Shown piece after piece: positions 10,601 to 50,539 of a DNA stretch of 64,000 bases. Position 1 is the stretch's first letter. The number at the start of each line of letters is the position of its first letter. Below the pieces are notes generated by a model, which was given only the letters and a program-made list of their open reading frames with translations, was not told the DNA's origin and did not search any database. Location: NCBI RefSeq assembly GCF_013122565.1, contig NZ_CP053258.1; one strand, given 5' to 3'. Both the position numbers and the translations under genes were made by a program. The stretch is from Escherichia coli. Its GTDB lineage: Bacteria > Pseudomonadota > Gammaproteobacteria > Enterobacterales > Enterobacteriaceae.

Positions 10601-10622
10601 GCATCATGGCATCCAGCCGTAT

Positions 10623-14831: not shown

Positions 14832-14842
14832 TGCTTTAGTAA

Positions 14843-15959: not shown

Positions 15960-15965
15960 TTTCCC

Positions 15966-23423: not shown

Positions 23424-25424
23424 TCATCCTTTTTGCTGAAGCATGGGGAATAATTGTTCGCACAGCAAAACACCGTTATTCATTGCTTCTACCCGTGCCT
23501 CGCTTTCTGTATTACGAAATTGTCCCAACACATGTGCCAGCCGATAAAAAACCACCGCGGTGAGGTCATTCGCCAGCAACTCTGCCTGACCAATAGCACT
23601 CTGTTCCTGATAGCGCCAGCCGTTATGGAGCAGTTGAATAAGTAACGCCTGGCAGCGCATCAGCAACTGATGAGCAGTAGACGGCACAGGCAGAACGCTG
23701 GCAGAAGGTAGCGGTGCCACAGGCGCAGTTTCTGCGTCCAGCGCCCAGGCGCGGGTTTTTGTCATCATTACCCGTGGTTCCAGTGTCAATTGCCCATCAA
23801 CAAAACTGACAAAGCCAGAAACCAGACACACGGGGTCCTCTGTTTGTTGCAAAAGCGCCGCCATGCGTTCAACGGCATAAGGCGCGCTGGCTGAGGCTGG
23901 TAGGGATAACGTCAGCACATTATCTTCCCCTTCGCCGCTAATGACCTGCGCATCCAGTGTCTGGCGGCTGCTATCCCAACCAAGCGAAATACACTCCGCT
24001 ACCGGCAGAATAAATAAGTTATCGACCTGGTTGAGTGGTCGTATGCAGGCGGGGGGACGCTGGCGTAAATATTCCCGCAAAGCCACAATGCCCGGCTGGC
24101 GCAACGGCGCGCTCAACATTTGCCAGGCGTCTGGCGACAACGGCACAACGCTGCTTAAGCGGTTGCGGGTAGCTAACAGCAGCTCGCCATCGGCACTGCG
24201 TTTTGCTGCTTGTGAAACAATTTGCCCACCTGCCAGTGCGCCAGCCTGAAAACTAAACAGCCGACGTTTTGCCGCGGGAGCGTTTTCTTGTTCGCTTCTC
24301 GGCCAACTACGCGAAAGATGCAAAATACTGCCGGTGTCGGGATCGGTGAACCAGATGCGTAAACCATACTGCTCAATATCCTGCCAGCAACGCATACCTA
24401 AAGACACCAGCCGCAGATGATCAAGCTTTGCTTCTCCGGCAATGCCAGCGCCAACGACCGTGCGCCACGGCACAGGAGGAACTTCACCGATACTGTCGCG
24501 CCGGGCCATCTCTTGTGCGCAATTTAATCGACTGTTTAATGCCGCAAGCTGACGTAAGCATTCTCCGGCATGATAGTGGCTGGCGCGGGCGTGGAAGGCA
24601 TCAACGCTGGCGCGCAGTTGCCGTAGCGATTCACTCACCCATCGCCAGTTGCAGCGTTCCGCCGCCTGCTGTGCGCGGCTGAAAGCGGCCTCGTAATGGA
24701 TTGGCGGCTGGCTGATGCCGCCCAGCCATAATGCCTGACTTAATTGCTGAACATATTGACGACACGCGTTGCCCTCTTCGCTGGCAAACGGATCGTCAGA
24801 TGATGTGACGTGTTCGCTGCGCATCTGCCAGATTAAATGAGTAAATTCCGCTTGCTGAGTTTTTGCCTCGACGAAGGCCTGCACAGCCAGTACGACATGT
24901 TCGCAAAGTGTGCCGTCAATACAATCACAACGGGCGAAACGAATACTGCTGCGGGAATAAAAACGCACATCGCTCATCGGTAAGCGGGCAGAGGGAATTT
25001 CGCCCGGCGTACAGAACAACTCAATGGTGATGCCTTTAGCGACCAACGCCTGTGCGCGTTTGCGGGTGGCATCGGGAAGGGTAGCCAGTTCTTCCAGCCA
25101 GATTGCCGGATCCCACTCTTCTTCTTTTTCCGTGGGCTGAACGGTGGCACAAAGTCGTTGATAACTTAACACCAGCATAACGCGATGACGGCACATGCCG
25201 CTGGCCCCGCAGGTGCACTGAGCCTCTTTCAGTGCCTGACCGTTCGCCAGCTGGGTACGGACACCGTCACTGAAGGTGGCGATTAAAGCGCCGTTCTCAT
25301 GGCTGATTTCCGGGACGTTGCCATTTTCCAGTTCCTTAAGGCTGCGCTTAACAAAACCGGCATTGCTTAACGCCGTCAGTGCCTGCGGTGTCAGTTCTAA
25401 TAATTCCGGGCGTAGTGAATTCAT
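23424..25424 (-). CDS. yehQ: SWIM zinc-finger protein YehQ, about 666 aa with the chosen start
   Basis: Two CxCx(n)CxH SWIM motifs seen (CTCGASGMCRHRVMLV; CDCIDGTLCEHVVLAV). Start set at ATG 25424..25422, which overlaps the yehP TGA stop (ATGA); an upstream ATG at 25448 is an alternative. Confidence 0.75.
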   Translation of the reverse strand: MNSLRPELLELTPQALTALSNAGFVKRSLKELENGNVPEISHENGALIATFSDGVRTQLANGQALKEAQCTCGASGMCRHRVMLVLSYQRLCATVQPTEKEEEWDPAIWLEELATLPDATRKRAQALVAKGITIELFCTPGEIPSARLPMSDVRFYSRSSIRFARCDCIDGTLCEHVVLAVQAFVEAKTQQAEFTHLIWQMRSEHVTSSDDPFASEEGNACRQYVQQLSQALWLGGISQPPIHYEAAFSRAQQAAERCNWRWVSESLRQLRASVDAFHARASHYHAGECLRQLAALNSRLNCAQEMARRDSIGEVPPVPWRTVVGAGIAGEAKLDHLRLVSLGMRCWQDIEQYGLRIWFTDPDTGSILHLSRSWPRSEQENAPAAKRRLFSFQAGALAGGQIVSQAAKRSADGELLLATRNRLSSVVPLSPDAWQMLSAPLRQPGIVALREYLRQRPPACIRPLNQVDNLFILPVAECISLGWDSSRQTLDAQVISGEGEDNVLTLSLPASASAPYAVERMAALLQQTEDPVCLVSGFVSFVDGQLTLEPRVMMTKTRAWALDAETAPVAPLPSASVLPVPSTAHQLLMRCQALLIQLLHNGWRYQEQSAIGQAELLANDLTAVVFYRLAHVLGQFRNTESEARVEAMNNGVLLCEQLFPMLQQKG

Positions 25425-26557
25425 GACTGAAGATTCTCCGCAAGCCATGATGCCAGCTCGCCCGGTGTCATGGCGGCTATTTGTGCGCCGATATTAACCA
25501 GCGCCTGGGCCGTATCGTGGTCATAGCAGGGTGTTGCGTTGCTATCGAGCGCCGCCAGTCCCAGCACTTTGATGCCGCTCTGGACACACTTTTTCACCTG
25601 ATGCGTCAGCAATGATGATGAACCCCCTTCGTAAAAATCGCTCACGAGGATAATGACGCTTTTTGCTGGTTGTTCAATAAGTTGCCGACCATACTCCACG
25701 GCACTGGCGATATTGGTCCCGCCACCCAACTGTACTTTCATTAATAACTCTACCGGATCGGCAACGTCTGCCGTGAGATCAACGACGCTTGTGTCAAACG
25801 CCACCAGATGGGTACGAATGCCGGGTAACTGCCACAAACAGGCCGCCATCACCGCAGAGTGGATCACCGAATCGACCATCGAGCCGCTTTGATCAACCAG
25901 TAAGACCAGTTGCCATTGTTCGCTTTGGCGTTTAATGCGGCTGTTAAAGCGGGGGGATTCGATATACAACTTGCCGTGTTGCGGGTGCCAGTGTTGCAGG
26001 TTGGCGCGCAGAGTACTTTTGAAATCAAAGTTTCGCGCCAGTGGAATAAATGAGCGGCGACGGCGATCGCGGACACCAGAAAAAGCCTGACGAACCTCCT
26101 TTGCCAGTTGTGCCATAATTTCTTCCACAACCTGGCGCACTATCCGGCGGGCGGCAGCCAGTACTTCGGGATTCATCAGATGTTTGGTGTGCAAAACGGC
26201 GCGTAGCAGGCTTTCAGAAGGCTGCATACGTTCCAGCACGTCGAGATTTGTCACCACATCTTCAATGCCGTAGCGCAGTACGGCATCGCTTTCCAGCCGC
26301 TCAATCACCTGTTGCGGAAACAGCGTGTGAATACTGTTGATCCACTCAGGAGTGGTGAGATTTGAGCCACCTAATCCACCGGAGCGTTCACCACGCTGGA
26401 GCCGTTCAGGATCGCGCCCATACAGCCACTCCAGCGCGTGGTCTATCTGCCGGGCGTTGTCATCCAGCCCACAAAGCGTCGTTTCTGCCGCTTCGCCAAG
26501 AATTAATCGCCAGCGTTGTAGTTCACGGGTGGTCAGAAGATCGTTCAGTTCAGACAT
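25421..26557 (-). CDS. yehP: von Willebrand factor A (VWA) domain protein YehP, 378 aa
   Basis: MIDAS motif DQSGSM seen; start ATG 26557 (MSELNDLLTTRELQ...); 76-codon upstream extension in ORF track rejected; overlaps yehM 3' end by 8 nt. Confidence 0.85.
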   Translation of the reverse strand: MSELNDLLTTRELQRWRLILGEAAETTLCGLDDNARQIDHALEWLYGRDPERLQRGERSGGLGGSNLTTPEWINSIHTLFPQQVIERLESDAVLRYGIEDVVTNLDVLERMQPSESLLRAVLHTKHLMNPEVLAAARRIVRQVVEEIMAQLAKEVRQAFSGVRDRRRRSFIPLARNFDFKSTLRANLQHWHPQHGKLYIESPRFNSRIKRQSEQWQLVLLVDQSGSMVDSVIHSAVMAACLWQLPGIRTHLVAFDTSVVDLTADVADPVELLMKVQLGGGTNIASAVEYGRQLIEQPAKSVIILVSDFYEGGSSSLLTHQVKKCVQSGIKVLGLAALDSNATPCYDHDTAQALVNIGAQIAAMTPGELASWLAENLQS

Positions 26558-28829
26558 GGAAAACTCCCCAGTGTTGCAGCGATGCCAGTGCCTGCTGTTC
26601 GAGTTGTTGATGATGTGCAATGGCTTGTGGTGGACAATGCAACGGCATTTGCAGAGCCGAAACGGGAAGTTGCGCCAGTTGATAATGTTCAAGCACCTGA
26701 TGCGCCAGCGTCCCGCGTTCTCGTGGCGGTAGCCAGGCCATCGCCGCGCGTAAATCGGGCAGGGCATTGATAAAATCGGCATCACTTAGTTGATTTAAAT
26801 GACTGCTGAAACCGGCGATAAATGCCGGCTGACAAGCCAGTTGATGACGGGCTAATGCCAGCAAACCGTGCAGCGCCTCGCCGGATTGGGCCGGGGATAA
26901 CTGCGTCAGCATTGTCAGCGCCGCTTCGGCACTAGCGTTGGGATGTTCCAGACGCATCAGTGCGCCAAGAGTCGCGCCGCGATCCAGCGCCGGGGCATGA
27001 ATCGCCTGACTGCGGCGCTCCAGTAAGGCTACCGCCGCAGAAAGCGAAACGCCGGATAAGTTAACGCCGCTATGTAGATCGCGCAGGATATGGCAAAGCG
27101 CTTGCCAGCTATGCAGGTGAGCGTGAAACTCCTTTTCATCCGGTCTGCCGTTGGATTCACACAGCCACAGCGTGCGATCGATAGCCGCGCATAACGTCGT
27201 TTGTAATATCTGCGCGCCTTGCATACCGCTAATTTCATCCAGCCGCCATAAGGCATATAGCACTTCCAGCGCCTGGCCCATTTCGGCAAATTGATTTTCC
27301 TGGGCGATTAATAATGTGAGTTGTTCCAGTAATTGCTCACTAAAGCTCGCCAGGCCCGCTAACGCCGCCTGGCTAAGACATGCGGTAATGCTGCCGATTC
27401 CACCCGCGTCCAGCATATCGGCTTCTAATTTATTGCGTGCGGCTTCCTGGAGTGTTGCACCAAAGCAGGCGGCCTCAATCAATGCCGCATGCTGGCTAAG
27501 CGGGCGGGTTAATTTCCAGCGTTCTTCACCGTTGCCTGCAAGTGTCAGTGTACTTCCCTGCTGGCGTACAATCCCTGGGATCTCCAGTATTGCCAGCCGA
27601 TGTAACACCTGACTTTGCGCTAGTCCATTGGGGTTAAAGCGATTTAAGGTAAGCTGCGCCGGAAGAGAGATTCCGGTACGTTCCAGTTCGCAGGTGACAT
27701 CTTTTGGCAGAGGCGGTTGTGGCGTGGAGGGGGCAAGTTTACCGAATCCGTCACCCGCTAATGTGTCTATCAACGTTAGCAGAATCGGATCGGTATCGGG
27801 ATGAATAACTCCGCGATAGCTCCACGGCAACGGCGCGTTCAAGGCTTCTTTAATCAGCGAGCCTGCTATGGCATCCAGCCAGTCAGTGCGTAACGGTAGT
27901 GTATGACCGCGCAACTGTGCCAGCGCCATCACATGCAGATGAGCGGCAGCCATATCAGCGGTAGAAGCGGGCAATTTGTGCTGGCGCAAACGGGCAAGGA
28001 TAGTTTTTAGCAGTTGTTCACCGGCCTGCTGTAAGCCCCACTGCCAGCACCAGTTTTGCCAGACCGGGGCAGGCATACCGGAAAGGTATCCAGCCAGCAC
28101 ATCAAGGCGCTTTTCACTGTAGGGGGTGAGATAACAACCTGTAACGGCATCTGCCAGCGACGGCAATTCTGGCGTGTTAATTTCCTGCGGACATTCGCGC
28201 CACATTTTTGCCAGTGCCGGAGCGTGCCAGCCACCGCAGACAACTAACACGTCGCCATTATTTTGCTGCATCGCCCATCCAATCCAGCGGGCCATAAAGG
28301 CTTCGCGCTGACGATTGAGTGCATCGCCGAGGAAATCGCCCCGCAGTTGGGCAAAATAGTGCGCCAGTGCAGAGGGTAATGCAGTTCGCTGGCTTTCATC
28401 TTCGAACAAGTGATCCCACAGGGTATCGCTGTTATCCATGCGGGTGGCACGCAGCAGCAAGGTCTGGCTTTCCTCTTGCGTATCAGGCGAATCGTCCTCT
28501 TCTTCACTCTGTGCCCAGCAAGGCAAATCGATGAAGTAAGTTTGTGCCTGAATACGACGAGCGGCTTGTAGCGCCTGCCACTCCGGCGAAAATTCAGCAA
28601 ATGGCGTCCAGGCACCACGCCCGGGGGCTGCACCGTCCTGATACTGGCAATAACTGTAAATAGCTACCGGAAGCTGGTGGGCTAAAAACAGTTCGTCTAC
28701 CCGGTCATTAAAATCAGCCGGGCCTTCAATCAACACGTATCGTGGCCGCTGGCTTTCGATTAACGATTTCACCAGCCGGGCGCAGGCCGGACTATGATGC
28801 CGGATGCCGACAATTAACAGCTCGCTCAT
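26550..28829 (-). CDS. yehM: large uncharacterised protein YehM, 759 aa
   Basis: Start ATG 28829 (MSELLIVGIRHHSP...); no recognised catalytic motif; second gene of the yehLMPQ cluster. Confidence 0.8.
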   Translation of the reverse strand: MSELLIVGIRHHSPACARLVKSLIESQRPRYVLIEGPADFNDRVDELFLAHQLPVAIYSYCQYQDGAAPGRGAWTPFAEFSPEWQALQAARRIQAQTYFIDLPCWAQSEEEDDSPDTQEESQTLLLRATRMDNSDTLWDHLFEDESQRTALPSALAHYFAQLRGDFLGDALNRQREAFMARWIGWAMQQNNGDVLVVCGGWHAPALAKMWRECPQEINTPELPSLADAVTGCYLTPYSEKRLDVLAGYLSGMPAPVWQNWCWQWGLQQAGEQLLKTILARLRQHKLPASTADMAAAHLHVMALAQLRGHTLPLRTDWLDAIAGSLIKEALNAPLPWSYRGVIHPDTDPILLTLIDTLAGDGFGKLAPSTPQPPLPKDVTCELERTGISLPAQLTLNRFNPNGLAQSQVLHRLAILEIPGIVRQQGSTLTLAGNGEERWKLTRPLSQHAALIEAACFGATLQEAARNKLEADMLDAGGIGSITACLSQAALAGLASFSEQLLEQLTLLIAQENQFAEMGQALEVLYALWRLDEISGMQGAQILQTTLCAAIDRTLWLCESNGRPDEKEFHAHLHSWQALCHILRDLHSGVNLSGVSLSAAVALLERRSQAIHAPALDRGATLGALMRLEHPNASAEAALTMLTQLSPAQSGEALHGLLALARHQLACQPAFIAGFSSHLNQLSDADFINALPDLRAAMAWLPPRERGTLAHQVLEHYQLAQLPVSALQMPLHCPPQAIAHHQQLEQQALASLQHWGVFHV

Positions 28830-28839
28830 GCATCTTTCC

Positions 28840-29928
28840 TCACGGCAGGCGGTGGCGGGCTTGATAATAAGCCTGCCAGTGAGCTTCTTTATGTGTGGCG
28901 ACTCGCTGTTCGAAGTAACGGCGCAGACGAGCGCGATCTTCTTCGTTATCTTTGACGATGGTTCCGGCAATACAGTCCACCAGATCGGCTGGCTCACCTG
29001 CGCGATTCGCTAAAAACCAGGCGCGGACGCCCACAGCGTGGGCCACGTTCACGGCTTCAGCGGTGGACATAATCGCTGTTAGTGTATCCATTGACGTTTT
29101 CTTTTCGCCGTTGGCACGCAGATCGCGGAAGGTGCGGACCAGTAACTCCAGTACCGCGTCAGGCACTTTATGCGGAATACCGCTATGGGCCAGCAAACGC
29201 GCCGAAGCACTGGCGACCAGTTCCAGCTCCTGAGCGAAATCCATAATCGGAAAGACAGTTTCAAAATCGAAGCGACGCTTTAGCGCAGCACTCATCTCAT
29301 TGACGCCGCGATCGCGCGTATTGGCAGTGGCAATAATATTAAAGCCTTCCCGCGCATAGAGTTGACTGGCTTCACCAGTGAGTTCCGGCACCGTCATCAC
29401 CCTGTCAGAAAGCATACCTAACAGACAGTCTTGCACTTCCAGCGGTGTACGCGTTATCTCTTCAAAACGGACGATTTTGCCGTCGCGCATTCCCTGGTAA
29501 AGCGGGGCAGGGACCAGCGCTTCCGTTGATGGACCATGATTGATAAGCAGAGCGTAGTTCCAGCCGTACTTGATTTGATCTTCAGTGGTAGATGCGCCGC
29601 CCTGGATGGTTAACCCGGCATCGCCGCTAATAGCGGTTGCCAGTAATTCAGACAGGAGAGATTTTGCGGTGCCCGGTTCCCCCACCAACATCAAACCGCG
29701 CCCGGTGGCAAGAGTGACTAACATACGTTCGACAGCAGAGGGACTAATCACGACTTTACGGCTAATATTTTGCGCGCTATCGCCAAGGATAAAAGCACGT
29801 GCCGCAGGCAAACTTAACTGCCAACCGGGCGGGCAAGGTGCGTTATCATTTTGTTTTAATTTTGCCAGTTCATCGGCGTATAACACAGCGGCAGGCGGAC
29901 GCTGCAGATGATTATTCTGCGGTGACAT
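28840..29928 (-). CDS. yehL: MoxR-like AAA+ ATPase YehL, 362 aa
   Basis: Walker A LVGEPGTAKS and Walker B-like hydrophobic-DE segment seen; start ATG 29928 (MSPQNNHLQRPP...); 10-nt gap to yehM. Confidence 0.85.
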   Translation of the reverse strand: MSPQNNHLQRPPAAVLYADELAKLKQNDNAPCPPGWQLSLPAARAFILGDSAQNISRKVVISPSAVERMLVTLATGRGLMLVGEPGTAKSLLSELLATAISGDAGLTIQGGASTTEDQIKYGWNYALLINHGPSTEALVPAPLYQGMRDGKIVRFEEITRTPLEVQDCLLGMLSDRVMTVPELTGEASQLYAREGFNIIATANTRDRGVNEMSAALKRRFDFETVFPIMDFAQELELVASASARLLAHSGIPHKVPDAVLELLVRTFRDLRANGEKKTSMDTLTAIMSTAEAVNVAHAVGVRAWFLANRAGEPADLVDCIAGTIVKDNEEDRARLRRYFEQRVATHKEAHWQAYYQARHRLP

Positions 29929-30037: not shown

Positions 30038-30120
30038 ATAAAAAAACCTGCTGGTGAGGCAGGTTCTTTTATTTACTACAGTGACGCTAACTTGCTGATT
30101 GTGCAACATTTCGTACCAAC
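30038..30120 (-). ncRNA. orzO: candidate OrzO-like antitoxin sRNA, copy 1
   Basis: Minus-strand -10 (TATAAT, plus 30127..30132) and intrinsic terminator (hairpin 30047..30063 with U-tract); its 5' region contains GCAACATTTCGTACCAAC, which matches zorO-1 5' UTR 30271..30288 at 17/18 positions as a direct repeat, so the RNAs are complementary. Ends are approximate. Confidence 0.4.
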
Positions 30121-30358: not shown

Positions 30359-30448
30359 ATGGACACGCTGACACAAAAGTTAACCGTGCTCATTGCCGTA
30401 CTGGAGTTATTAGTGGCTCTGTTACGGTTGATTGATTTGTTGAAGTAA
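30359..30448 (+). CDS. zorO: 29-aa hydrophobic type I toxin-like peptide MDTLTQKLTVLIAVLELLVALLRLIDLLK
   Basis: Short ORF with strong SD (AGGAG) and single TM helix; organisation (tandem duplication, long UTR, divergent sRNA) matches the zorO-orzO locus described in E. coli O157:H7. Gene name is from memory. Confidence 0.6.
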   Translation: MDTLTQKLTVLIAVLELLVALLRLIDLLK

Positions 30449-30644: not shown

Positions 30645-30729
30645 AAATAAAAGAACCTGCTGGTGAGGCAGGTTCTTTTATTTACTACTTTGATGTTAAG
30701 TTACTGATAGTGCAACATGGCATCTCAAC
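30645..30729 (-). ncRNA. orzO: candidate OrzO-like antitoxin sRNA, copy 2
   Basis: Same architecture as copy 1 (terminator hairpin 30656..30672; -10 at plus 30736..30741); pairing segment TGCAACATGGCATCTCAAC differs from copy 1 and matches the zorO-2 UTR (30881..30899) with 2 mismatches. Confidence 0.35.
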
Positions 30730-31238: not shown

Positions 31239-31541
31239 TTATTCTATTTCTTGGTTGAATATATTCTGTAGTTCGCGATTAAAAATTGCTATTACCGTTT
31301 CAGGTGATTCACCTCGTAATTTCCGCTCATCAATACACTCATCTCTTATATAAATCAACGCATCATTTATTTGCGGGTCGGCATCATTAAATGTTGGATG
31401 TAGCCGGAATCGCTCCAGCCGGTAGACGGAACCTGTAAATAATTCAGAGCATTTATGGATCTCAAGTCTGAAGGAAAACGGATCTTCAGGTACAGGGACC
31501 TCATAATCGTAAATAGCAACCAGCTCTTTTTGCACGATCAT
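31239..31541 (-). CDS. yehK: uncharacterised small protein YehK (100-aa ORF here)
   Basis: ORF track; sits immediately downstream of yehI (59-nt gap), same strand. Confidence 0.65.
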   Translation of the reverse strand: MIVQKELVAIYDYEVPVPEDPFSFRLEIHKCSELFTGSVYRLERFRLHPTFNDADPQINDALIYIRDECIDERKLRGESPETVIAIFNRELQNIFNQEIE

Positions 31542-31600: not shown

Positions 31601-34600
31601 TTAATGGAAAATGACGTCGGGTGCGCTTAACGCCTCACTCAAATCAAACACATCAAGTTCGGCAAAAGTGACGGATTTATTGTCACGGTACACTCGAAGA
31701 GAACGGAAGCTCATTAACGCTTTGCTATCAACATTGTAGTGGTTAAAACCGGGTGAAAACTTAAGGACCAGCCGGTACTCGCCCAGGTCATAGACAAATG
31801 CATCCTCATAGCCTGACTCCCAGCCTTTGTATCGCATTCCCATAAGCTGCCCAACGGTAGCGGATTTACCTTCCCAGCGAGTCAGGCTGTTACTGGTTGA
31901 CTCGTCAGGTGTGAGCAGCACCGTGCGGCGCGACAACTGGCGAAAAGGCGGCATAATTTCGTAATCGGCAAAAAGCTGTGCAAATTCACTGCGCATTTCT
32001 GCTGTCATTTCTAACGGGTGGGCAATGCCAATCAGAGCATCCGCAGGCAGGTCAATGGGCTCATCTTGCGCATTGCAGAACTCACCCTCTGCGGCCACAC
32101 GAAAGGCGTTGAGTAAACGACGCGGTTCATTTGCTGGATACACGCCCCATATTAATCGCTGAGTAACCAGGCGGGTAAAGGGATGATTAACAAACAGAGA
32201 ATGAAAATCTGCCAGCGACCAGCGTCGGGTGGTACGTAGGGCTGCTTCAAGACGCGGGAGCAGGTTTTTGCTCACCTGGGTGGCATCTTTTTTTAGCCCT
32301 TTTAGTCGGGCCAGTGCCTCGGGCGCTTTCAGTTGATCGTCATCGGCGCGCAACCGGGGAACACTTTTCTGGCGAACGTTTTGTTGATCAAAGATAACCG
32401 GGTTGAGGTTTTCATCGAAGCGAACGGTAAACTGCCGGGGACCAAAATCAAAAATCAACGCCTGCGGATCATCAAGACCCAGTGTTGGGACTAATCTGTC
32501 CGCTAACTCTTCCTGGCTTAGCCCGCGATTTTCTGCGACCACCTGAAGAAATTCCGCTGCGTTTTCACGTAATGAAGAGGATTTCGCCCGTTGTGATACA
32601 TGATGCAGCTGTATCAGCGCCATATCATTATTCATCAGGGTAAGTATATTCAGACCACTGACAGCACGGGCAGATTTGCCTTCTTGTGGCCAGGCGAGGA
32701 TCTGTGTCGTTAGATCCCGTGCCGTGCTTTCGTCACCAAAGAGACTTAACGCCAGAAATGCCCAGTTGTCTTTTGCGGGGGCACCAGCTTGTTGCCAGGC
32801 GGTGAAGAGATCCCAGGCAAAAGCTGCCAGCGTTTGCGGCTGGCAGAACGATTTCAGTTGTTCCAGTCCGCTATAAAAACGTCCCCCCTGGGTAAAGCGC
32901 AGCATTTCGCCGATAATTTCCAGAGCGTCATCGGTAACAGGTTGATTATTAGTGATAAGTCGAGGCCTGGACCACATTGCCGGATGCCAGAAATCAGGGG
33001 CTTTTGGAATGCGTGCCGGGTAAATCTCTATTTGACTCTGTTTAAGTAATTGTTCCAGGGCAGGCCATACATCAGCGCGATCCCAGCGGTTTGCCACGGT
33101 TTGTAGTAATACGCCATGTCCCTGTTCATACAGTAAACGCAGGGCAAGTAATGCAGCTTCGCTATTATCGCTGGATTTGGTGAAGACAAGAGGGATAAGT
33201 GCAGTAGCCGTATGTTCCGGCCATTGTAAAATCCACTGGCGGGCCAGATCACGCTGCGCCGCGAAACGTCGCCAGACGCGGGCAACAGGCAGGGCCAGTT
33301 CTGTTGCGCCAAAATGAATCAGCAGAGGAAATATCTCTTTTGGATGTCGGGCAAAGGCGGTGTTTAATCCAGGCAAAGCATCGGTACCCAGCACACTTAA
33401 CAGATATTCCCCCCCGGTGTAATGAAAATCAGCCTCGACAATTTGTTGCCAGCACGATACCGCCATTTCGTGCGGCATCTGCGCGATAAGGTACAGATTC
33501 CAAATCCCCCAACGCTTTTTATTACCATAGTAAAATCCGTGCTGAAAAGTTCGCCACCCTCCCATCAGCGCAATGCTATCTTGTGCCAGTAATGCTTTGG
33601 TGGCTTCTTCCCGGTACTGTTTAGATTTGGCCTGATACGCGTGATAAGTACGCAATAGTCCTATTGATGTGTATTCTTGCAGTTGCTGAGCATCAAAGGC
33701 ATCCAACTGTCCATGAAGAAGACGCTTATTAAATTCCAGGCTATGAACGTCAAAACCTAATTCCCGCAAGAAGGTATCCGCCCCTCTCTTAGCAAGACGT
33801 TCGTCAAAAGACATGGCGCTAAAATGGTCAATTGCAGTTTGCTGTTCCGGCGTCCAGTGTTTATTCGGCGACCTGTACGTTTGCGGTGCAAGCGTAAGAT
33901 CAGGCAGCGAAAAGTGAGGTATGGAAGTCTTTTTCTTCCTCCCACGCCATGGTGGTGAAACGAGGATTTCAGGCATTTGGCTGTTATCGGTACTATCAAT
34001 AACCGGTTTGGGCGGTGCCAATAAATAACTATTCAGTACTGCCCGGGCTTGAGTACTTAACCACTGCATCACCTCTTCTGCCAGTTGTGGCTGCGATGCC
34101 ATCAGCGTTTGTAACAGCGTACGCCAGTATTCATCTCGAGCTTTTTGCTGGGCAGGCAGCTTTTTGTCTTCGATGATTGGATAACCAGGGCGGGCTGGTG
34201 GTTCTTTTAACGCCAGCAGTTCTGCCAGTGCCGCGAGCGTCGCGTGGGGGAAGTTTTTACTGTATTTAGCCACACGTTGCAGGCTGGGTTTGTTTTTATC
34301 AGCCACCAGTAGCAAGGTGCGGATGACCTGCGGATGGTTAATTTGTACCAACAGACTGCCGCAATCTTCTTTATGGGCATACATCGCGAGGCGCGGAATG
34401 GCTGCCAGTCCTTGTTCGCGCAAAAGGGCGGCGCAGGCCGCGTAGCCGAAGTGGTTTTCATGCGACATGTAGCTGGCTTCGCGATCGCTAAATATATCCT
34501 GACTCCAGTAGTGATCGAGTTTCCTCACCGCTGTGGGGTCATTAGCAACAACTTTTAGCCACTCCTTAGAATGATAATGAGTCCGTGGGCATTCAAGGCC

Positions 34601-35248
34601 TATCAACTCATTGGCGATTTCTGGTTTTTCCGGGAGGATCAGCGCAATAAAAGGGCGGCGAACTTTGGTTATTCCTGGCAGTGCGGCAATGAGTTTGTCG
34701 GCGCAACGCTGCCAGCAGCTTTCCTCTGCCAGAGAGAGATGCTTACGCAGTCGGAGATCGAATTCGTTATAGGTTTCTGATCGATAACCATAGCCATAGT
34801 CCTCGTTCTGATACTGCAATGTCACTACCAGAGGATCACTCTCATAACACCGCGCAATAAACTGGCGTGCAATCACCACCTCAGTCGCATATTCCAGCCC
34901 CTCTTGTTGGACGATTTCGTCGAGTAACTGTTGGCTGTCATTTTGCGCGATACAGGCTAGCGCCGCCATTGTCCGGGCCGGGATTGAGGGTTTGTGTTCG
35001 CCGATCAAGTTGATGGCCTGCGTGATGGCGGACTGCCACTCCAGTGAAAAATTCTCATAACGCCAGACAATGTTTTTTTTCTTCTCAGCTTTTTGTAGCA
35101 ATTCATCACCCAGTGTCTGAATGATGCTTTCAGTGATAACAGGCACTGGTTCGCCCGGCCAATTGCGATGGCTGAGTGGTGTTTTGCCTTTTTTATATTT
35201 CAGTTCCAGTTGGGCGTTATCCGCCAGCCACGGTAATTCCTTGTCCAT
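31601..35248 (-). CDS. yehI: giant MolR-like protein YehI (1215 aa), lacking the N-terminal WGR domain
   Basis: Shares conserved C-terminal blocks with the four upstream paralogs (FAQLFADYEIMPPFRQL, RRWSLADF...HPFTRLVTQRLIWGVY, LEYATEVVIA); begins at the LPWLADN motif that follows the WGR domain in the paralogs. Confidence 0.85.
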   Translation of the reverse strand: MDKELPWLADNAQLELKYKKGKTPLSHRNWPGEPVPVITESIIQTLGDELLQKAEKKKNIVWRYENFSLEWQSAITQAINLIGEHKPSIPARTMAALACIAQNDSQQLLDEIVQQEGLEYATEVVIARQFIARCYESDPLVVTLQYQNEDYGYGYRSETYNEFDLRLRKHLSLAEESCWQRCADKLIAALPGITKVRRPFIALILPEKPEIANELIGLECPRTHYHSKEWLKVVANDPTAVRKLDHYWSQDIFSDREASYMSHENHFGYAACAALLREQGLAAIPRLAMYAHKEDCGSLLVQINHPQVIRTLLLVADKNKPSLQRVAKYSKNFPHATLAALAELLALKEPPARPGYPIIEDKKLPAQQKARDEYWRTLLQTLMASQPQLAEEVMQWLSTQARAVLNSYLLAPPKPVIDSTDNSQMPEILVSPPWRGRKKKTSIPHFSLPDLTLAPQTYRSPNKHWTPEQQTAIDHFSAMSFDERLAKRGADTFLRELGFDVHSLEFNKRLLHGQLDAFDAQQLQEYTSIGLLRTYHAYQAKSKQYREEATKALLAQDSIALMGGWRTFQHGFYYGNKKRWGIWNLYLIAQMPHEMAVSCWQQIVEADFHYTGGEYLLSVLGTDALPGLNTAFARHPKEIFPLLIHFGATELALPVARVWRRFAAQRDLARQWILQWPEHTATALIPLVFTKSSDNSEAALLALRLLYEQGHGVLLQTVANRWDRADVWPALEQLLKQSQIEIYPARIPKAPDFWHPAMWSRPRLITNNQPVTDDALEIIGEMLRFTQGGRFYSGLEQLKSFCQPQTLAAFAWDLFTAWQQAGAPAKDNWAFLALSLFGDESTARDLTTQILAWPQEGKSARAVSGLNILTLMNNDMALIQLHHVSQRAKSSSLRENAAEFLQVVAENRGLSQEELADRLVPTLGLDDPQALIFDFGPRQFTVRFDENLNPVIFDQQNVRQKSVPRLRADDDQLKAPEALARLKGLKKDATQVSKNLLPRLEAALRTTRRWSLADFHSLFVNHPFTRLVTQRLIWGVYPANEPRRLLNAFRVAAEGEFCNAQDEPIDLPADALIGIAHPLEMTAEMRSEFAQLFADYEIMPPFRQLSRRTVLLTPDESTSNSLTRWEGKSATVGQLMGMRYKGWESGYEDAFVYDLGEYRLVLKFSPGFNHYNVDSKALMSFRSLRVYRDNKSVTFAELDVFDLSEALSAPDVIFH

Positions 35249-35257
35249 GCTCTTTCC

Positions 35258-38200
35258 TTATTCAAACAGGGCTTCAATATCATTAATTAACTCGCTGGTG
35301 GTGATGGCATCGAGTACGGAGAACTGCGCTTCCTGAGTTGAATTATTCCTCCAGCCATAGCTTTCTGCTTTGCCTTCCCATAGCCACAGCTTGCTTAAGA
35401 GCTGCTCGGCGCTAAGTTCGGCTGGCGACATACCCACAGCAAAGCCTTCATCGATTTCCATGATTAACGACCAGCGGCCCAGGGGTTTGATCATCCAGCA
35501 GATCCAGCCTCCATCCTGTGGTTCGCCCTTTATCCAGCCTTTATTCGCCAGCCCCATGACCCGACCACTCGGGCATTTTCTGCCTGCCCAGCGGGTCAGT
35601 TCGCTGGCGTTGCGCTCGGCTTCTGTCAGGGCGTAACTGTTACGGTCAAGCTGACGGAACGGTGGTAGCAGTTCGTAGTCGGCAAAAAGCTGACCAAAGG
35701 CGGCAGCATCCGTCGGTGATATTTCCAGAACGTGAGGAATACCAATAGAGATATCGCCTTCCGGCAGGGTGAAAAGATCATCGTCAGCGGTGCTGTAACT
35801 GTTATCTTCCGCCACGCGAAAGCACGCCAGCAGCTGGTTTTCGGCGCTATAAACGCCCCAAATCAGACGACGGGTTAAGTGGCGAACCAGCGGGTGCTCA
35901 ACCAGGAAAAGCTGAAAGTTTTCCGGCGACCAGCGGCGGCGCAGGCACATGGCGGATTCCAGCCTTGCTACCTGCTGGGCGGCGACGGTACGCGCATCTT
36001 TTTTCAGCAATTTGTAGCGGTTTACCGCCTCATCAGCCCGCGATTCATCATCGCTTTTATTGGGTTTAGGTAAGTCTTTCAGGCGGCTGCCGGAAACATC
36101 ACGCACAAACGGTTTTAAGGTTTCATCAAAGCTGACGGTGAACTGGCGTGAGCCGAAATCCAGCAGCAACGAACCGTTATCATCCAGACCGAGATCCGGG
36201 GCCAGGCGATCTTCTAGCTCCGCCACCGTGAGTTCGCGGCTTTCGGCAATGTCGGCAATTTTTTCTTTTGCCCGCTCCTGTAATGCTTTGAATTTCAGTT
36301 TCTGGGCGATGCCGTTAAGTTGCATCAAGGCGATATCACTACCGATAGTGGCGAGAATATCCAACCCAACGGTGGCGCGTTTATGCTGGGATTCACCAGG
36401 CCAGGCACGGATTAATGGCGTCAGTTTGCGGGCGGTGTCATCGTTACCGAGAACACCTAACGCGTTGAACGCCCAGCTCTCTTTCGACGGCGCGCCAGCG
36501 GTCTGCCAGGCGGTAAACAGATCCCAGGCAAATCCCGCCAGTGAGTCGGGGGTACAGGCATCTTTCACCTGCAATAATCCCGGATACAGTGCCTCTTCCT
36601 GAGGGAAGCGGAGCATTTCACCGAGGTAGAGTAGGGCGCTATCGGGCAGTGATTGGGCGTTTGCTTTTAATACCGGGCGCGTCCAGAGCGATGGCTGATA
36701 AAAGGCCGGAAGAGTGGGGATTTTTGTCGGGTGATTATCTAAGGGATCGAGCGCAAGCAGAGCGTTCACCGCGTCTGTTACTTCCGGCTGGTTATAACGC
36801 CGGGCGATTTCTTGCAGTAATGGCTGATGACCGTTTTCGGTAAGCATACGCAAGGCAGCGCGGGCGTTATCCTGTGCTTCACCGGCTTTGCCGAGCGCGG
36901 CAGGCAGCAGGCCGGTAATGGCGTGTTCCGGGTATTTCAACAGCCAGCTACGGGCGTCTTGTCGTAGGGTTTTGAGTTTGTTGAAGGCGCGGGCAATCAG
37001 TGGCGCTAATTCGATAGCCGCAAAATATTGTGCTATAGGCAGCGCTTCTTGCGGATAGCGAGATGCTGAGTGGATAAAACCTGTTAAACCAGCAAGTCGA
37101 AGATGCAACATTACTTGTTTTGCACCTGTATGTGGTTCTTTACTAAGGATGTTCCACATCTCGATAGCTTTATTAATGGGTAAAACATGGAGTGAAGAAA
37201 GATTCCATTCGCCCTGATAAGGGGAGTTATAGGACTTAAAAGCATCAATCAGCGCTGAATAATCTTCACGCTGCCAGGCATCCAGTGCTATTTCTGGAAC
37301 ATCAATATAGCCTCTATGTTTGTTCCAATCCCAGCGGTTGAATCCCAGGGAGGTCAGAAAAGCTTTTTCTCCCTCAGCTTGCTGATGAGGTTGCCAGTTA
37401 TGCTGCACTTGCAGTGTTTTGCTTTTTGTTTCATTTATTGTACAGAAGGATTCTAGGGATAATGGTGCTAAATCCAGCACCGAAATCGTCGATTTTTTCT
37501 TTTTAGCCAGCCAGGGCGGTGAGATTAGTACGGCAGGCAGCAAATCGGCGTTCGCATAAACTGAAGGTTGTGTCAGTTGTTGCAGGCATGACTTAAGTTC
37601 GGTAACCGCCGGAGCAGATAGCCAGGGAATTACCTGCTCTGCTAATGTTGGTTGTGAGATAAGCATTGTCATTAGCATCATGCGCCAGCGCTTTTCATCT
37701 TTTTGTGCCAGAAGTTCTGCTAATGCCGCCAGCGCTGCATGTGGAAAGCGAACGAAAGCCTTTGTCATGCGATCGTGGCAACGCTTTCCCTGCTCGCTTG
37801 CATGGATAAGTAGTGTAAGTGCCTGGGGGTGGTTGATATGCATCAACACTTCCCCACATGTGTCACCAGCAGCGTAAGGAGCAAAACGGGCCAGCGCAGC
37901 GACACCTTGCTCCTTGAGTATCGTTGCACACCAGATTTTACCGCCGTAATAATCATCAAATACCTGCCCAGGCTGTCCTGGATAGTATTTTCCCAGTTCT
38001 GCCAATACCTGCTCGTCGGTGGTCGTCAGTTTCAGCCATTCCAGCGCATATAACCCTTTTTGTCCACAAAGATGTCTGGCAATCTCATGAGCTACTTCTG
38101 GTTTTTCCGGCAACAATAGTGCAACCAGTGGCTGGTGCCACGTGGGCATGGTTCCGAGAGCGGCAATCAGTTTGTCGGCGCAGCGCTGCCATACATCGTC

Positions 38201-39016
38201 ATTTGCAAGTGAGAGATGCTTACGCAGGCGCATTTCAACCGAAGCGAAGCGTAACAGATAGCCAGGCTGCCTGTTATCCGGGGTAACCGTAATGAGATGG
38301 GCATCATAATCCCAGTCGAAGCGGATGAATTGCAATGCAATGACAACCTCAGTGGCATATTCCAGACCACCTTCCTGGACAATTTGATCCATTAGCTCTT
38401 CATGATCGTTACGATTGAAGCCTTGTTCCAGCGCAACCAGTACCGCCAGAACCATCGGTGGTAGCGTGGTGCTAATTGGCGAGTCGATAAGGCCTACGGC
38501 TTGTGTAATTGCCTGCTGCCAGTCCAGTGAACAGGTGCTGTAATCGAAGGTGAGCACCTTTTTAAAACGCCGGTGAGTATTCGCGGCGACGGAGCGTAGC
38601 AGGGTTAATTCATTCTCCTGTGGCACAGGAGCGCCAGGCCAGCGTCGATGACTTAGTGTGGTTGGCGCAACCTCTGTCGGTAAAATGATTTGGGTGTCGT
38701 CTGCCAGCCAGGGGAGGTGGTCTCCAGTAAATGCCGGTTTGTCTTGTGGCAAAGGGGTTATTTCCGGGCATTCGATAACCTTGCCGGGCGCAGATGTCGG
38801 TGTCATCACGGATACTTCTTCTACGTAGCCCTTTTTTGTTTTCTCCGTAATCAGCTTCAGTTCCGCTTTTTCCGCCGCTGCAGCATCTGCAAAGCTTTTT
38901 ACCTGGCTTTGCCCGTTAGTACCGACTTTGCCCCAGGTAATATGCAGCTCGTTTCCCTGCTGCTCCACCGCCCAGAATTTATGTGATTTTTCATCCTGAT
39001 AAATATAGGTTTTCAT
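35258..39016 (-). CDS. MolR-like giant protein, paralog 1 (1252 aa): N-terminal WGR domain plus YehI-like body
   Basis: N-terminus MKTYIYQDEKSHKFWAVEQQGNELHITWGKVGTNGQ (WGR signature); body shares blocks with YehI; 9-nt gap to yehI. The corresponding K-12 locus (molR) is a pseudogene by my recollection. Confidence 0.8.
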   Translation of the reverse strand: MKTYIYQDEKSHKFWAVEQQGNELHITWGKVGTNGQSQVKSFADAAAAEKAELKLITEKTKKGYVEEVSVMTPTSAPGKVIECPEITPLPQDKPAFTGDHLPWLADDTQIILPTEVAPTTLSHRRWPGAPVPQENELTLLRSVAANTHRRFKKVLTFDYSTCSLDWQQAITQAVGLIDSPISTTLPPMVLAVLVALEQGFNRNDHEELMDQIVQEGGLEYATEVVIALQFIRFDWDYDAHLITVTPDNRQPGYLLRFASVEMRLRKHLSLANDDVWQRCADKLIAALGTMPTWHQPLVALLLPEKPEVAHEIARHLCGQKGLYALEWLKLTTTDEQVLAELGKYYPGQPGQVFDDYYGGKIWCATILKEQGVAALARFAPYAAGDTCGEVLMHINHPQALTLLIHASEQGKRCHDRMTKAFVRFPHAALAALAELLAQKDEKRWRMMLMTMLISQPTLAEQVIPWLSAPAVTELKSCLQQLTQPSVYANADLLPAVLISPPWLAKKKKSTISVLDLAPLSLESFCTINETKSKTLQVQHNWQPHQQAEGEKAFLTSLGFNRWDWNKHRGYIDVPEIALDAWQREDYSALIDAFKSYNSPYQGEWNLSSLHVLPINKAIEMWNILSKEPHTGAKQVMLHLRLAGLTGFIHSASRYPQEALPIAQYFAAIELAPLIARAFNKLKTLRQDARSWLLKYPEHAITGLLPAALGKAGEAQDNARAALRMLTENGHQPLLQEIARRYNQPEVTDAVNALLALDPLDNHPTKIPTLPAFYQPSLWTRPVLKANAQSLPDSALLYLGEMLRFPQEEALYPGLLQVKDACTPDSLAGFAWDLFTAWQTAGAPSKESWAFNALGVLGNDDTARKLTPLIRAWPGESQHKRATVGLDILATIGSDIALMQLNGIAQKLKFKALQERAKEKIADIAESRELTVAELEDRLAPDLGLDDNGSLLLDFGSRQFTVSFDETLKPFVRDVSGSRLKDLPKPNKSDDESRADEAVNRYKLLKKDARTVAAQQVARLESAMCLRRRWSPENFQLFLVEHPLVRHLTRRLIWGVYSAENQLLACFRVAEDNSYSTADDDLFTLPEGDISIGIPHVLEISPTDAAAFGQLFADYELLPPFRQLDRNSYALTEAERNASELTRWAGRKCPSGRVMGLANKGWIKGEPQDGGWICWMIKPLGRWSLIMEIDEGFAVGMSPAELSAEQLLSKLWLWEGKAESYGWRNNSTQEAQFSVLDAITTSELINDIEALFE

Positions 39017-40450
39017 TGCAAATTCCTTTTAATCAAACAGTGATTCAATATCGTTAATCAGCTCGCTGGCAGTGATGTCGTCGAGCACGGAGAAGGGATA
39101 AACCGATTTGCGCGGCGTCAGTTTGTACAACTGAATGTGCTCAATTTTTTGGTTATCGCTGATTTCGGTGACGGGCAATCCAACACAGAAGCCGGGTGTC
39201 ACACTCAGTTCGACGTAGCCATCATCCACAGCTTTATAAAATGAGTAATAGCCGCCACCATCCAGAACATCGCCCCGTTGCCAGCCTTTATTCATCAGCC
39301 CGGCGACGCGCCAACTCGCTGCCTGGCGACCAGCCCAGCGCTGCAAATCGTTGCTGTTTTTTTCTGAATCAGAGAGCTGAGACCAGGGGCGATCAAGTTG
39401 ACGGAACGGTGGCAGGAGTTCGTAGTCAGAGAACAGTTGGGCAAATTCAGCAGCCTGTGGGGCCGGGATTTCCAGCACATGCGGGATACCGATACAGCCC
39501 TGCGCAAGGGTAAACGGGGTATCCTGACCGTCGCTAAAACTGCCATCCTCCGCCACGCGAAAACAGCAAATAAGGTGATTATCAGCGTCATAAATGCCCC
39601 ACATCAGACGTTGGGTGATATGACGAACCAGGGGATGCTCAACCAGAAACAGGCGGAACTGTTCTGCAGTCCAGCGGCGACGCTGACACATGGCGGCTTC
39701 CAGACGCGAAATCTGTTGTGCAGCTACCGTGCGGACATCTTTTTTCAACAACTTGTAGCGATTTACCGCTTCCTCAGCCAGCGTTTCATCATCGCTTTTG
39801 TTCGGTTTGGGCAGGTCTTTCAGACGGTTGCCGGAAGTATCGCGCACAAACGGTTTTAAGGATTCATCAAAGCTGACGGTGAACTGGCGTGGGCCGAAAT
39901 CCAGCAGCAGCGAACCGTTATCATCCAGACCGAGATCGGGCGCTAACCGGTCTTCCAGCTCTGCGACAGTGAGCTGGCGGCTTTCGGCAATCTGGGCGAT
40001 TTTAGTTCTAGCCTGATCCTGCAAGGCTTTAAATTTTAGCTTTTGCGCAATGCCGTTAAGCTGCATCAGGGCGATATCGCTGCCGATAGCAGCAAGAATA
40101 TCCAGCCCGACAGTGGCGCGTTTATGCTGGGATTCCCCCGGCCAGGCGCGGATGAGCGGGGTGAGTTTGCGGGCGGTGTCATCGTTACCCAGAATCCCCA
40201 GTGTGGTAAATGCCCAGTTATCTTTAGCTGAGCCACTGGCAGATTCCCAACTGAGGAAGAGATCCCAGGCAAAATCGGCAAGAGATTGCGGGGTACAGGC
40301 CTCGATTACCTGTGTAATTCCTGGGTAAAGGGTGGCTTCGCGGGGGAAAGAGAGCATGGTGCACAGGTGCAGGATGGCTGAATCTGAAAGTGCCTTGCCG
40401 TTACTGCGCAGAAGCGGGCGGTGCCATACTTCTGGCGAACACCACCCAGG
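39017..40450. repeat. about 1.4 kb direct repeat (copy A) spanning the 3' part of paralog 2 and its downstream junction
   Basis: Near-identical by eye to 42866..44300 (offset 3849 bp); only scattered substitutions over the first about 1.2 kb; spurious plus-strand ORFs recur at identical offsets (39196/43045, 39798/43647, 40050/43899). Confidence 0.8.
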
Positions 40451-42865: not shown

Positions 42866-44300
42866 TGCAAATTCCTTTTAATCAAACAGTGATTCAATAT
42901 CGTTAATCAGCTCGCTGGCAGTGATGTCGTCGAGCACGGAGAAGGGATAAACCGATTTGCGCGGCGTCAGTTTGTACAACTGAATGTGCTCAATTTTTTG
43001 GTTATCGCTGATTTCGGTGACGGGCAATCCAACACAGAAGCCGGGTGTCACACTCAGTTCGACGTAGCCATCATCCACAGCTTTATAAAATGAGTAATAG
43101 CCGCCACCATCCAGAACATCGCCCCGTTGCCAGCCTTTATTCATCAGCCCGGCGACGCGCCCACTCGCTGCCTGGCGACCAGCCCAGCGCTGCAAATCGT
43201 TGCTGTTTTTTTCTGAATCAGAGAGCTGAGACCAGGGGCGATCAAGTTGACGGAACGGTGGCAGGAGTTCGTAGTCAGAGAACAGTTGGGCAAATTCAGC
43301 AGCCTGTGGGGCCGGGATTTCCAGCACATGCGGGATACCGATACAGCCCTGCGCAAGGGTTAACGGGTTATCGTGACCGTCGCTAAAACTGCCATCCTCC
43401 GCCACGCGAAAACAGCAAATAAGCTGATTATCAGCGTCATAAATGCCCCACATCAGACGTTGGGTGATATGACGAACCAGGGGATGCTCAACCAGAAACA
43501 GACGGAACTGTTCTGCAGTCCAGCGGCGACGCTGACACATGGCGGCTTCCAGACGCGAAATCTGTTGTGCAGCTACCGTGCGGACATCTTTTTTCAACAA
43601 CTTGTAGCGACTTACCGCTTCCTCAGCCAGAGTTTCATCATCGCTTTTGTTCGGTTTGGGCAGGTCTTTCAGACGGTTGCCGGAAGCATCGCGCACAAAC
43701 GGTTTTAAGGATTCATCAAAGCTGACGGTGAACTGGCGTGGGCCGAAATCCAGCAGCAGCGAACCGTTATCATCCAGACCGAGATCGGGCGCTAACCGGT
43801 CTTCCAGCTCTGCGACAGTGAGCTGGCGGCTTTCGGCAATCTGGGCGATTTTAACTCTTGCCTGATCCTGCAAGGCTTTAAATTTTAGCTTTTGCGCAAT
43901 GCCGTTAAGCTGCATAAGAGCGATATCGCTGCCGATAGCAGCAAGAATATCCAGCCCGACAGTGGCGCGTTTATGCTGGGATTCCCCTGGCCAGGCGCGG
44001 ATGAGCGGGGTGAGTTTGCGGGCGGTGTCATCGTTACCCAGAATCCCCAGCGCGGTAAATGCCCAGTTATCTTTAGCGGAGCCACTGGCAGATTCCCAAC
44101 TGAGGAAGAGATCCCAGGCGAAATCAGCAAGAGACTGCGGAGTACAGGCCTCGATTACCTGTGTAATCCCGGGGTAAAGGGTGGCTTCACGGGGGAAAGA
44201 GAGCATGGTGCACAAGTTCAGGATAGCTGAGTCAGGAAGTGCCTTGCCGTTACTGTGCAGAAGCGGGCGATGCCATACTTCTGGCGAACACCAGGTGGGG
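42866..44300. repeat. about 1.4 kb direct repeat (copy B) spanning the 3' part of paralog 3
   Basis: See copy A. Confidence 0.8.
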
Positions 44301-50437: not shown

Positions 50438-50539
50438 TCTGCATCCCTGTAATTTTATCCAGTTGAATGCAGATGCTACCAGTATTTATGCGGGTTAGAG
50501 AGAGACAAAATCGCAAGAAAACAACTTTAGGAATTTATA

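Follow-up and report, generated by a model that had tools for sequence, protein, structure and literature searches.

What do the products of yehL, yehM, yehP and yehQ act on? These four genes are among the most conserved Escherichia coli genes without an assigned function. We addressed the question in a 64,000-nucleotide stretch of an E. coli genome (assembly GCF_013122565.1, contig NZ_CP053258.1; this whole stretch is hereafter the window), in which the four genes lie near an array of giant paralogous proteins that carry WGR and DUF4132 domains and resemble MolR and YehI. A reading of the window made without database searches (the sequence-only reading) had nominated these giants as candidate partners of an ATP-driven remodeller formed by YehL and YehP. 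Here we report that the five gene families are inherited together across phyla, and we propose, at a little short of an even chance for the statement as a whole, that yehLMPQ and the WGR–DUF4132 giants may form one five-component, ATP-driven system working by the mechanism set out below.

yehLMPQ is linked to WGR–DUF4132 giants across bacteria

A YehM profile scan of one genome per species returned 328 relatives, of which we kept the best 80 loci (loci carry the prefix L) for tblastn and hidden Markov model searches; these come from Enterobacterales, Burkholderiales, Neisseriales, Xanthomonadales, Myxococcota and Actinobacteria. A MolR/YehI-like giant lies at most 10 kb from yehLMPQ in 71 of the 80 YehM-anchored loci, nearly always directly upstream of yehL and on the same strand, and the nine loci without a giant comprise five truncated contigs, two degraded loci and two loci (L069 and L077) with full flanks. 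This is the co-occurrence check that the sequence-only reading had proposed for its candidate partners, and the outcome speaks for them. The linkage also outlasts changes in gene order.

At least five such orders were observed (with G denoting a giant): G-L-M-P-Q, L-M-P-Q-G, L-M-G-P-Q, L-G-M-P-Q and divergent G/L-M-P-Q. In Burkholderia, for instance, the giant comes after yehQ; on a Sinorhizobium conjugative plasmid its place is between yehM and yehP, on a metagenome contig it is between yehL and yehM, and in two Myxococcota loci it is divergently oriented. Giants inside the operon, whether at yehM–yehP or at yehL–yehM, show overlapping stop and start codons. All five genes are present with 4-nt overlaps on a Streptomyces linear plasmid, and all five are kept in the Proteus version, in which YehM is 28% identical. 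Taken alone, the linkage of yehLMPQ with the giants is in our judgement very likely.

The C-terminal module of the giants defines a family of 7790 clusters at 50% identity (3899 at E <= 1e-30). In a reverse test starting from giants, four of six informative ones adjoin a YehL-like AAA_5 gene, two of these showing the full set and two lying on contigs that end just after the AAA_5 gene. The remaining two are solitary, which means that a giant can function, or at any rate be maintained, where no machine adjoins it. The association put forward by the sequence-only reading is thus real as seen from YehM and not symmetrical: the machine is almost never found without giants, and giants are possible without an adjacent machine.

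A tightly packed operon conserved beyond E. coli

The four genes are the annotated E. coli yehLMPQ operon. RefSeq names them yehL, yehM, yehP and yehQ, and the locus is present in 5362 of 5426 complete E. coli genomes. The best nucleotide identity of any of these to the locus of the window is 97.3%, so the window represents an E. coli lineage that is missing from this set of complete genomes. The sequence-only reading described four minus-strand genes at 23424–29928 separated by a 10-nt gap, an 8-nt overlap and an ATGA overlap, and reading the junctions directly bears this out: the yehL TGA ends at 28840 and the yehM ATG lies at 28829 (a 10-nt gap), yehM and yehP overlap by 8 nt (ATGTCTGA), and yehP and yehQ overlap in ATGA. 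The L-M-P-Q order with near-zero or overlapping junctions is seen again in about 75 loci of other genera, so the tight packing is no E. coli peculiarity. Both the junctions and their conservation across phyla fit the single translationally coupled operon suggested earlier, and no sigma-70-like promoter was found inside the operon of the window.

Existing catalogues already list the operon, the domain names of its products and the YehL subfamily of MoxR. As for function, the earlier statement that none is assigned holds in the libraries and literature searched (PADLOC, NCBIfam, PDB and published papers). The searched literature yielded regulation data only and no assigned function for yehLMPQ, an NCBIfam scan of the locus proteins gave weak ATPase/VWA similarities and one WGR-domain match and nothing more, and PDB profile searches with YehM, YehP, YehQ and the C-terminal module of the giants found no homologue.

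YehL and YehP as a MoxR–VWA pair

YehL matches Pfam AAA_5 at 2.6e-34, and its Walker A (GEPGTAKS; quoted in the sequence-only reading as LVGEPGTAKS), Walker B (VRFEEITR), IATANTRD and ALKRRF segments are at least 95% conserved among 80 orthologues. With Walker A, Walker B, sensor 1 and the arginine finger all intact, the protein is an AAA_5-type AAA+ ATPase, and it is the type member of the "YehL subfamily" of MoxR (PMC3893208). Its closest solved relatives in a PDB search are midasin AAA modules; it is also weakly similar to GvpN and other AAA_5 chaperones (NCBIfam) and faintly matches bpMoxR (Pfam, E 0.002).

YehP matches Pfam VWA_CoxE at 5.8e-72, and the DQSGSM (likewise quoted earlier), GGGT and SDFYEG segments of its metal-ion-dependent adhesion site (MIDAS) are conserved in 74 orthologues, mostly at 95% or more. 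Its gene is co-located with yehL in the window operon and in 74 of the 80 loci, the six loci without yehP being mostly truncated or degraded. Subfamily membership and the conserved ATPase and MIDAS motifs are consistent with the earlier suggestion that YehL and YehP would act as a MoxR–VWA remodeller. In E. coli yehP, a +1 ribosomal frameshift site was predicted by FSscan, and frameshifted products were detected from a yehP-egfp fusion (PMC2790909).

YehM has a TIKI-like fold and YehQ carries SWIM fingers

YehM, which matches Pfam DUF5682 at 1e-96, had been described from its sequence as a large unknown protein; we likewise found no function for it, and its structure model (predicted local distance difference test, pLDDT, 80) now points to a TIKI/TraB-like hydrolase fold. 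In this model the N-terminal domain (~1–260) is an alpha/beta domain with a parallel beta-sheet core that matches the TIKI/TraB/ChaN fold and fits that superfamily, and the ~450-aa helical remainder matches HEAT/ARM solenoids. Such a fusion distinguishes YehM from the TIKI/TraB/erythromycin-esterase/ChaN/RRSP superfamily, to whose families no sequence match was detectable in Pfam, NCBIfam or PDB profile searches.

All 83 sequences compared share nine residues of YehM (R10, H11, E35, E83, D101, E143, E176, G199 and H202), even those with no more than 24–28% identity. Five of them, R10, H11, E35, E83 and H202, come after beta-strands, as would be expected of catalytic residues in this superfamily. 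In active members of the TIKI family, catalysis relies on two His and two Glu (2His/2Glu) together with a basic residue (PMC6254334). With H11, E35, E83 and H202 as its candidate 2His/2Glu residues, YehM is probably an active hydrolase, as predicted from sequence and model. A domain seemingly common to YehM and the giants (hhalign probability 97%) was rejected as an artefact, the giant set having been contaminated by a read-through open reading frame (ORF), L036_7496_12445.

Both SWIM motifs that the sequence-only reading noted in YehQ (CxC..CxH) are present, as CTCGASGMCRH and CDCIDGTLCEH, with weak matches to Pfam SWIM (1.3e-3 and 0.12). Finger 1 (C70/C72/C78/H80, CxCx5CxH) is invariant in 33 orthologues and has the SWIM signature; finger 2 is found in the window and in the majority consensus and is less than 90% conserved. 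An AlphaFold2 model (pLDDT 90) contains two SWIM units, two helical bundles and a beta-rich domain, and a fold search with this model gave no informative match among structural relatives.

The giants are modular and variable within E. coli

The array of giant paralogues noted in the sequence-only reading is real and larger than had been stated, comprising four WGR–DUF4132 giants of 1246–1278 aa plus YehI. The five genes run head to tail at 31601–50437 with spacers of 12 or 9 nt, directly downstream of metG (Table 1). YehI is 32–40% identical to the WGR giants, and G4 has a 100% identical E. coli protein on record.

Table 1. Features of the yehLMPQ–giant region in the window
Feature	Position	Strand	Description
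yehL	28840..29928	minus	362 aa; MoxR-type AAA+ ATPase (AAA_5), YehL subfamily
yehM	26550..28829	minus	759 aa; DUF5682; N-terminal TIKI/TraB/ChaN-fold domain (~1–260), C-terminal HEAT/ARM-like helical region (both predicted from the model)
yehP	25421..26557	minus	378 aa; CoxE-like VWA, intact MIDAS, conserved helical N-terminal extension
yehQ	23424..25424	minus	666 aa; double-SWIM, two helical bundles, beta-rich middle domain
giant G1	46631..50437	minus	1268 aa; WGR + DUF4132; first gene of array
giant G2	42878..46618	minus	1246 aa; WGR + DUF4132 paralogue
giant G3	39029..42865	minus	1278 aa; WGR + DUF4132 paralogue, from ORF list and pairwise identities
giant G4	35258..39016	minus	1252 aa; MolR-like; Pfam WGR 1.4e-17, DUF4132 1.8e-51
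yehI	31601..35248	minus	1215 aa; DUF4132 only (Pfam 3.1e-47), without WGR; last gene of array
LexA-box-like site	50447..50462	minus	CTGGATAAAATTACAG; 25 nt upstream of G1 start codon; one mismatch to CTGT-N8-ACAG
yehK	31239..31541	minus	100-aa ORF between giants and yehL
OrzO-P RNA	30040–30113	minus	Rfam, 88.8 bits
OrzO-P RNA	30649–30722	minus	Rfam, 90.2 bits
zor–orz toxin ORF	30359–30448	plus	29 aa
zor–orz toxin ORF	30968–31057	plus	29 aa

The giants are modular: the WGR head and the C-terminal module, which ends in a SELIRD tail, are constant, and the middle between them is hypervariable. Among the four WGR paralogues of the window, identity is 91% in the WGR head, 19–47% in the fast-evolving middle of ~550 aa (~90–660) and 73–87% in the conserved C-terminal module of ~500 aa; across phyla, the conserved part is the last ~550 residues. 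The WGR domain is absent from YehI and from about a third of giants. The C-terminal tail "…D-I--SELIRD-E-L--" is present in 92 of 92 retained giants, partly by construction, as retention required a match to SE[LIVMA] within the last 30 residues. Its Ser-Glu lies exactly 12 residues from the C-terminus in 74 of these 92, and both residues are at least 90% conserved in the unfiltered set (n=102). A 1776-aa giant from a metagenome (L087, 6883-12213) combines HATPase_c (with a faint HisKA), WGR and DUF4132, the HATPase_c presumably lying in the variable region, and is preceded by a response-regulator gene and followed by a YehL-like AAA_5 gene; this case suggests that the variable region can host signalling modules.

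Within E. coli, most complete genomes carry one WGR giant, at ~88% nucleotide identity compared with 95–97% for yehLMPQ, and at least 80% of the four-WGR-giant array of the window is found in none of the 5426 complete genomes, so that this five-giant array appears unusually large. At the protein level, alleles of one giant are between 76% and 100% identical, and truncated variants of YehM and YehQ are common. In K-12 MG1655 (L086), yehQ is annotated as a pseudogene with an internal stop (2170-4170), as is molR, the sole WGR giant, with a frameshift and an internal stop (13001-16796). Screens based on K-12 therefore cannot report on an intact system, which may help explain the scant K-12 findings on the locus. 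In ST131 sublineages, a resistance transposon lies within the DUF4132 region (PMC9334617).

Regulation and a possible link to DNA damage

A LexA-box-like site precedes G1 (Table 1). One-mismatch sites of this kind are common by chance, and support for the box rests on related genera, with a similar box at −24 in Klebsiella grimontii and Intestinirhabdus, and on the literature, which lists molR among LexA-regulated genes with a known SOS box (PMC6590174). This published SOS link had been missed when the sequence-only reading described the giant array, and it concerns that array, not yehLMPQ. LexA boxes beyond Enterobacteriaceae were considered and rejected: no exact CTGT-N8-ACAG or GAAC-N4-GTTC occurs upstream of giants or yehL in the 80 loci, so SOS control is lineage-specific at best.

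Other published observations touch both parts of the locus. The molR promoter is activated by BglJ–RcsB (PMC3950696), yehL and yehM are upregulated in hns/stpA mutants (PMC3686432), and in Deinococcus one WGR protein and one DUF4132 protein belong to the DdrO radiation/desiccation regulon (PMC8533742).

A proposed five-component mechanism

The conserved genomic linkage argues for a five-component system, and analogy with characterised MoxR–VWA pairs would make YehL and YehP an ATP-driven remodeller with the giants as its clients or partners. We propose that YehL, as an AAA+ ring related to midasin, CbbQ and NorQ, and YehP, as a VWA-MIDAS adaptor, would grip the giants, probably via the conserved acidic C-terminal tail or the DUF4132 module, the tail being the likeliest candidate handle for the MIDAS site or the AAA+ pore. 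ATP hydrolysis would then remodel, activate or reset the giants. YehM, as a TIKI-type hydrolase (a protease or esterase) on a HEAT-like scaffold, might be a processing enzyme or an effector, and YehQ could serve, through its SWIM fingers, as an adaptor that contacts DNA or one of the partner proteins.

The WGR head, a nucleic-acid-end sensor in poly(ADP-ribose) polymerases (PARPs), together with LexA control in Enterobacteriaceae, suggests damaged or foreign nucleic acid as the trigger, and the hypervariable middle of the giants may be a recognition surface under diversifying pressure. In combination, the WGR head, SOS control and hypervariable middle point to a nucleic-acid response rather than to metal-cofactor insertion. 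Judged by themselves, these mechanistic details are possible rather than probable. We also consider, as a rather unlikely extension, that the locus is a widespread and unrecognised surveillance system, in which arrays of hypervariable giants would be receptors for damaged or foreign nucleic acid or other invader cues, the midasin-like MoxR–VWA motor would hold on to their invariant C-terminal tail and arm or reset them, and YehM, as a TIKI-type hydrolase, would provide the output.

Several observations weigh against these proposals. Two of the six sampled giants have no yehLMPQ nearby, one standing beside dnaX–ybaB–recR and the other beside a DinG-like helicase gene. The active-site assignment in YehM is a fold match combined with invariance, not a residue-by-residue superposition, and across the 80 loci the LexA-like box upstream of the giants was not found outside close Enterobacteriaceae. 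A search of PADLOC-DB 2.0 with seven locus proteins (E up to 0.01) gave no match, and in a small sample of 30 immediate neighbours from 15 loci there were two weak PADLOC matches, so the loci do not lie in recognisable defence islands. Finally, the locus is near-universal and fixed in position in E. coli, unlike most accessory defence genes.

Alternative explanations

The alternative that survives best, itself unlikely, is a dedicated anti-phage or abortive-infection system, in which giants would sense phage components or DNA ends, the MoxR–VWA pair would signal and the YehM hydrolase would be the toxic effector. Such a system would fit the variation of giant copy number and sequence within one species, the constant–variable–constant architecture of the giants and the frequent gene decay in E. 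coli (including the yehQ and molR pseudogenes of K-12), and it would be expected to show the patchy distribution across phyla, the plasmid copies and the toxin–antitoxin cassettes inside or beside the module that we observe. For instance, the 77-kb mobilizable plasmid pl1 of Iodobacter fluviatilis carries the whole module and two giants (L085, 4345-21749; yehQ annotated as two ORFs); a type I restriction–modification system comes immediately after the module, and insertion sequence (IS) elements and an integrase lie around it. A recognisable nuclease, NADase or pore effector is absent, however, and the same proteins that lack PADLOC matches sit among neighbours 28 of 30 of which lack any defence-family match, at one conserved position in 5362 of 5426 E. 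coli genomes and without a real copy in the phage collection.

A classical MoxR chaperone for metal or cofactor insertion, comparable to CoxD/CoxE, NorQ/NorD and the chelatases, is improbable. On this account the old name of MolR, molybdate metabolism regulator, would stem from a genuine role in metalloenzyme maturation and the ChaN-like domain of YehM would bind metal or haem, consistent with the CoxE-type VWA of YehP, the weak resemblance of YehL to GvpN and other AAA_5 chaperones, the place of haem-binding ChaN within the YehM fold group and the phenotype in molybdate utilisation that gave molR its name (Lee et al. 1990, cited by PMC8533742). No conserved metalloenzyme or cofactor gene adjoins the module in the 80 loci, however; WGR and SWIM are nucleic-acid- or protein-binding modules, and YehM retains a full His/Glu catalytic-type set, which may set it apart from ChaN. 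SOS control and the hypervariability of giants within a species would ill suit a housekeeping maturation factor, and molR and yehQ are pseudogenes in K-12.

That yehLMPQ and the giants are functionally independent neighbours carried together is highly improbable, for even though yehK and a 1.2-kb toxin–antitoxin region lie between them in E. coli, regulation is separate (BglJ-RcsB and LexA at molR, H-NS at yehL) and some giants occur alone, their adjacency in 71 of 80 loci, at least three phyla and five gene orders, including giants within the operon, strongly disfavours it.

Comparison with known systems

The five-component reading can be set beside several described systems that share its MoxR–VWA core. 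CbbQ–CbbO, NorQ–NorD and CoxD–CoxE likewise pair an AAA_5 MoxR ATPase with a VWA-MIDAS protein in one operon, and YehP matches the CoxE-type VWA. These pairs act on a nearby-encoded enzyme (Rubisco, NO reductase and CO dehydrogenase, respectively), whereas the yehLMPQ neighbourhood holds a TIKI-fold protein, a SWIM protein and WGR–DUF4132 giants and no enzyme client. The RavA–ViaA pair, whose partners include LdcI, shares the MoxR–VWA logic but belongs to another MoxR subfamily and forms a two-gene operon without giants, SWIM or a TIKI-fold protein. RavA–ViaA and YehL are the two MoxR systems of K-12, and the reported partners of RavA–ViaA are Nuo subunits (PMC3893208).

Midasin (Rea1) and YehL–YehP both combine an AAA_5 ring with a MIDAS domain, midasin being, unlike yehLMPQ, a single eukaryotic polypeptide in ribosome biogenesis. 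The MIDAS domain of midasin grips an acidic residue of its substrate, pulling the substrate off a large assembly, and by this analogy only we infer that the tail Glu of the giants might be a MIDAS ligand. The MoxR–vWA ternary conflict systems (bpMoxR family, Pfam) likewise have a MoxR–VWA core with large variable partners, and differ in that the yehLMPQ partners lack a beta-propeller or the other described partners. A SWIM/WGR combination is not mentioned in the searched literature on MoxR and vWA.

The WGR domain of PARPs is reported to recognise 5'-phosphorylated DNA breaks. Compared with PARP1-3, the giants share the Pfam WGR head and lack the ADP-ribosyltransferase domain, and DNA binding by bacterial WGR domains is putative. 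In the literature searched, we found no description of the giants as an integral fifth component, of a TIKI-type fold or invariant catalytic-type residues in YehM, of the modules and conserved tail from which the giants are built, or of their hypervariability in E. coli.

The five-component reading would turn a four-gene puzzle into a system with YehL as motor, YehP as MIDAS adaptor, YehM as probable hydrolase, YehQ as zinc-finger adaptor and the giants as modular clients with a conserved tail, drawn from a giant family of thousands of protein clusters across bacteria. Should the giants turn out to be receptors that evolve under diversifying selection, the system would represent MoxR-driven signalling or immunity of a new type; the surveillance reading, if true, would mean that innate immunity or DNA-damage signalling of a new bacterial architecture exists in nearly every E. 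coli.

Neighbouring genes, mobile elements and variant loci

Between the giants and yehL lies yehK, a doubtful member of the system since tblastn hits to it were confined to Escherichia loci (L001–L003); its one family match is a full-length PHROG of unknown function. The 1.2-kb spacer between yehK and yehL contains two tandem copies of zor–orz, a type I toxin–antitoxin pair (Fozo et al., PMC2887945), and this region is absent from K-12. YehM, YehP, YehQ, YehK and the giants all give full-length, near-identical, extreme-score matches to high-numbered PHROG families of unknown function. Most likely the families are prophage predictions that took in this chromosomal region, so the matches do not speak for a phage origin of the locus. 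The phage collection contains no real copy of it.

The yehM–yehP junction looks like a hotspot for insertions. Small paired ORFs lie there in an Azoarcus metagenome-assembled genome (L048, 4295-5633) and in Xenophilus (L072, 12330-13078), and by eye these look toxin–antitoxin-like (BrnT/BrnA-like and HigB/HigA-like; Phd/RelE-like); unrelated ORFs occupy the junction in L043 and L045. On two plasmids, one of Sinorhizobium (L081, 32-2753) and L082 (20416-21687), the module is flanked by SMI1/KNR4, DUF1963 and DUF1266 genes, whose families are common among the immunity proteins of polymorphic toxin systems.

We also observed variant loci, namely L069, L076, L077 and L084. The last of these, on a plasmid of Rhizobium sp. 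BG4 (6117-13440), encodes a distant YehL–YehM–YehP set with a YehM 24% identical and with giant and YehQ not detectable; two ORFs of 460 and 480 aa without known function precede its yehL and may be alternative partners. L051 and L057 have an extra ORF and no yehP or yehQ.

Elsewhere in the window, Rfam matches comprise a Peptidase-S11 RNA motif upstream of the ORF at 9470, two naRNA4 elements of the repetitive extragenic palindromic (REP) type and a thiamine pyrophosphate (TPP) riboswitch before thiM; these other matches, at 9394-9474, 10417-10593 and 61474-61570, are ordinary for an E. coli region.

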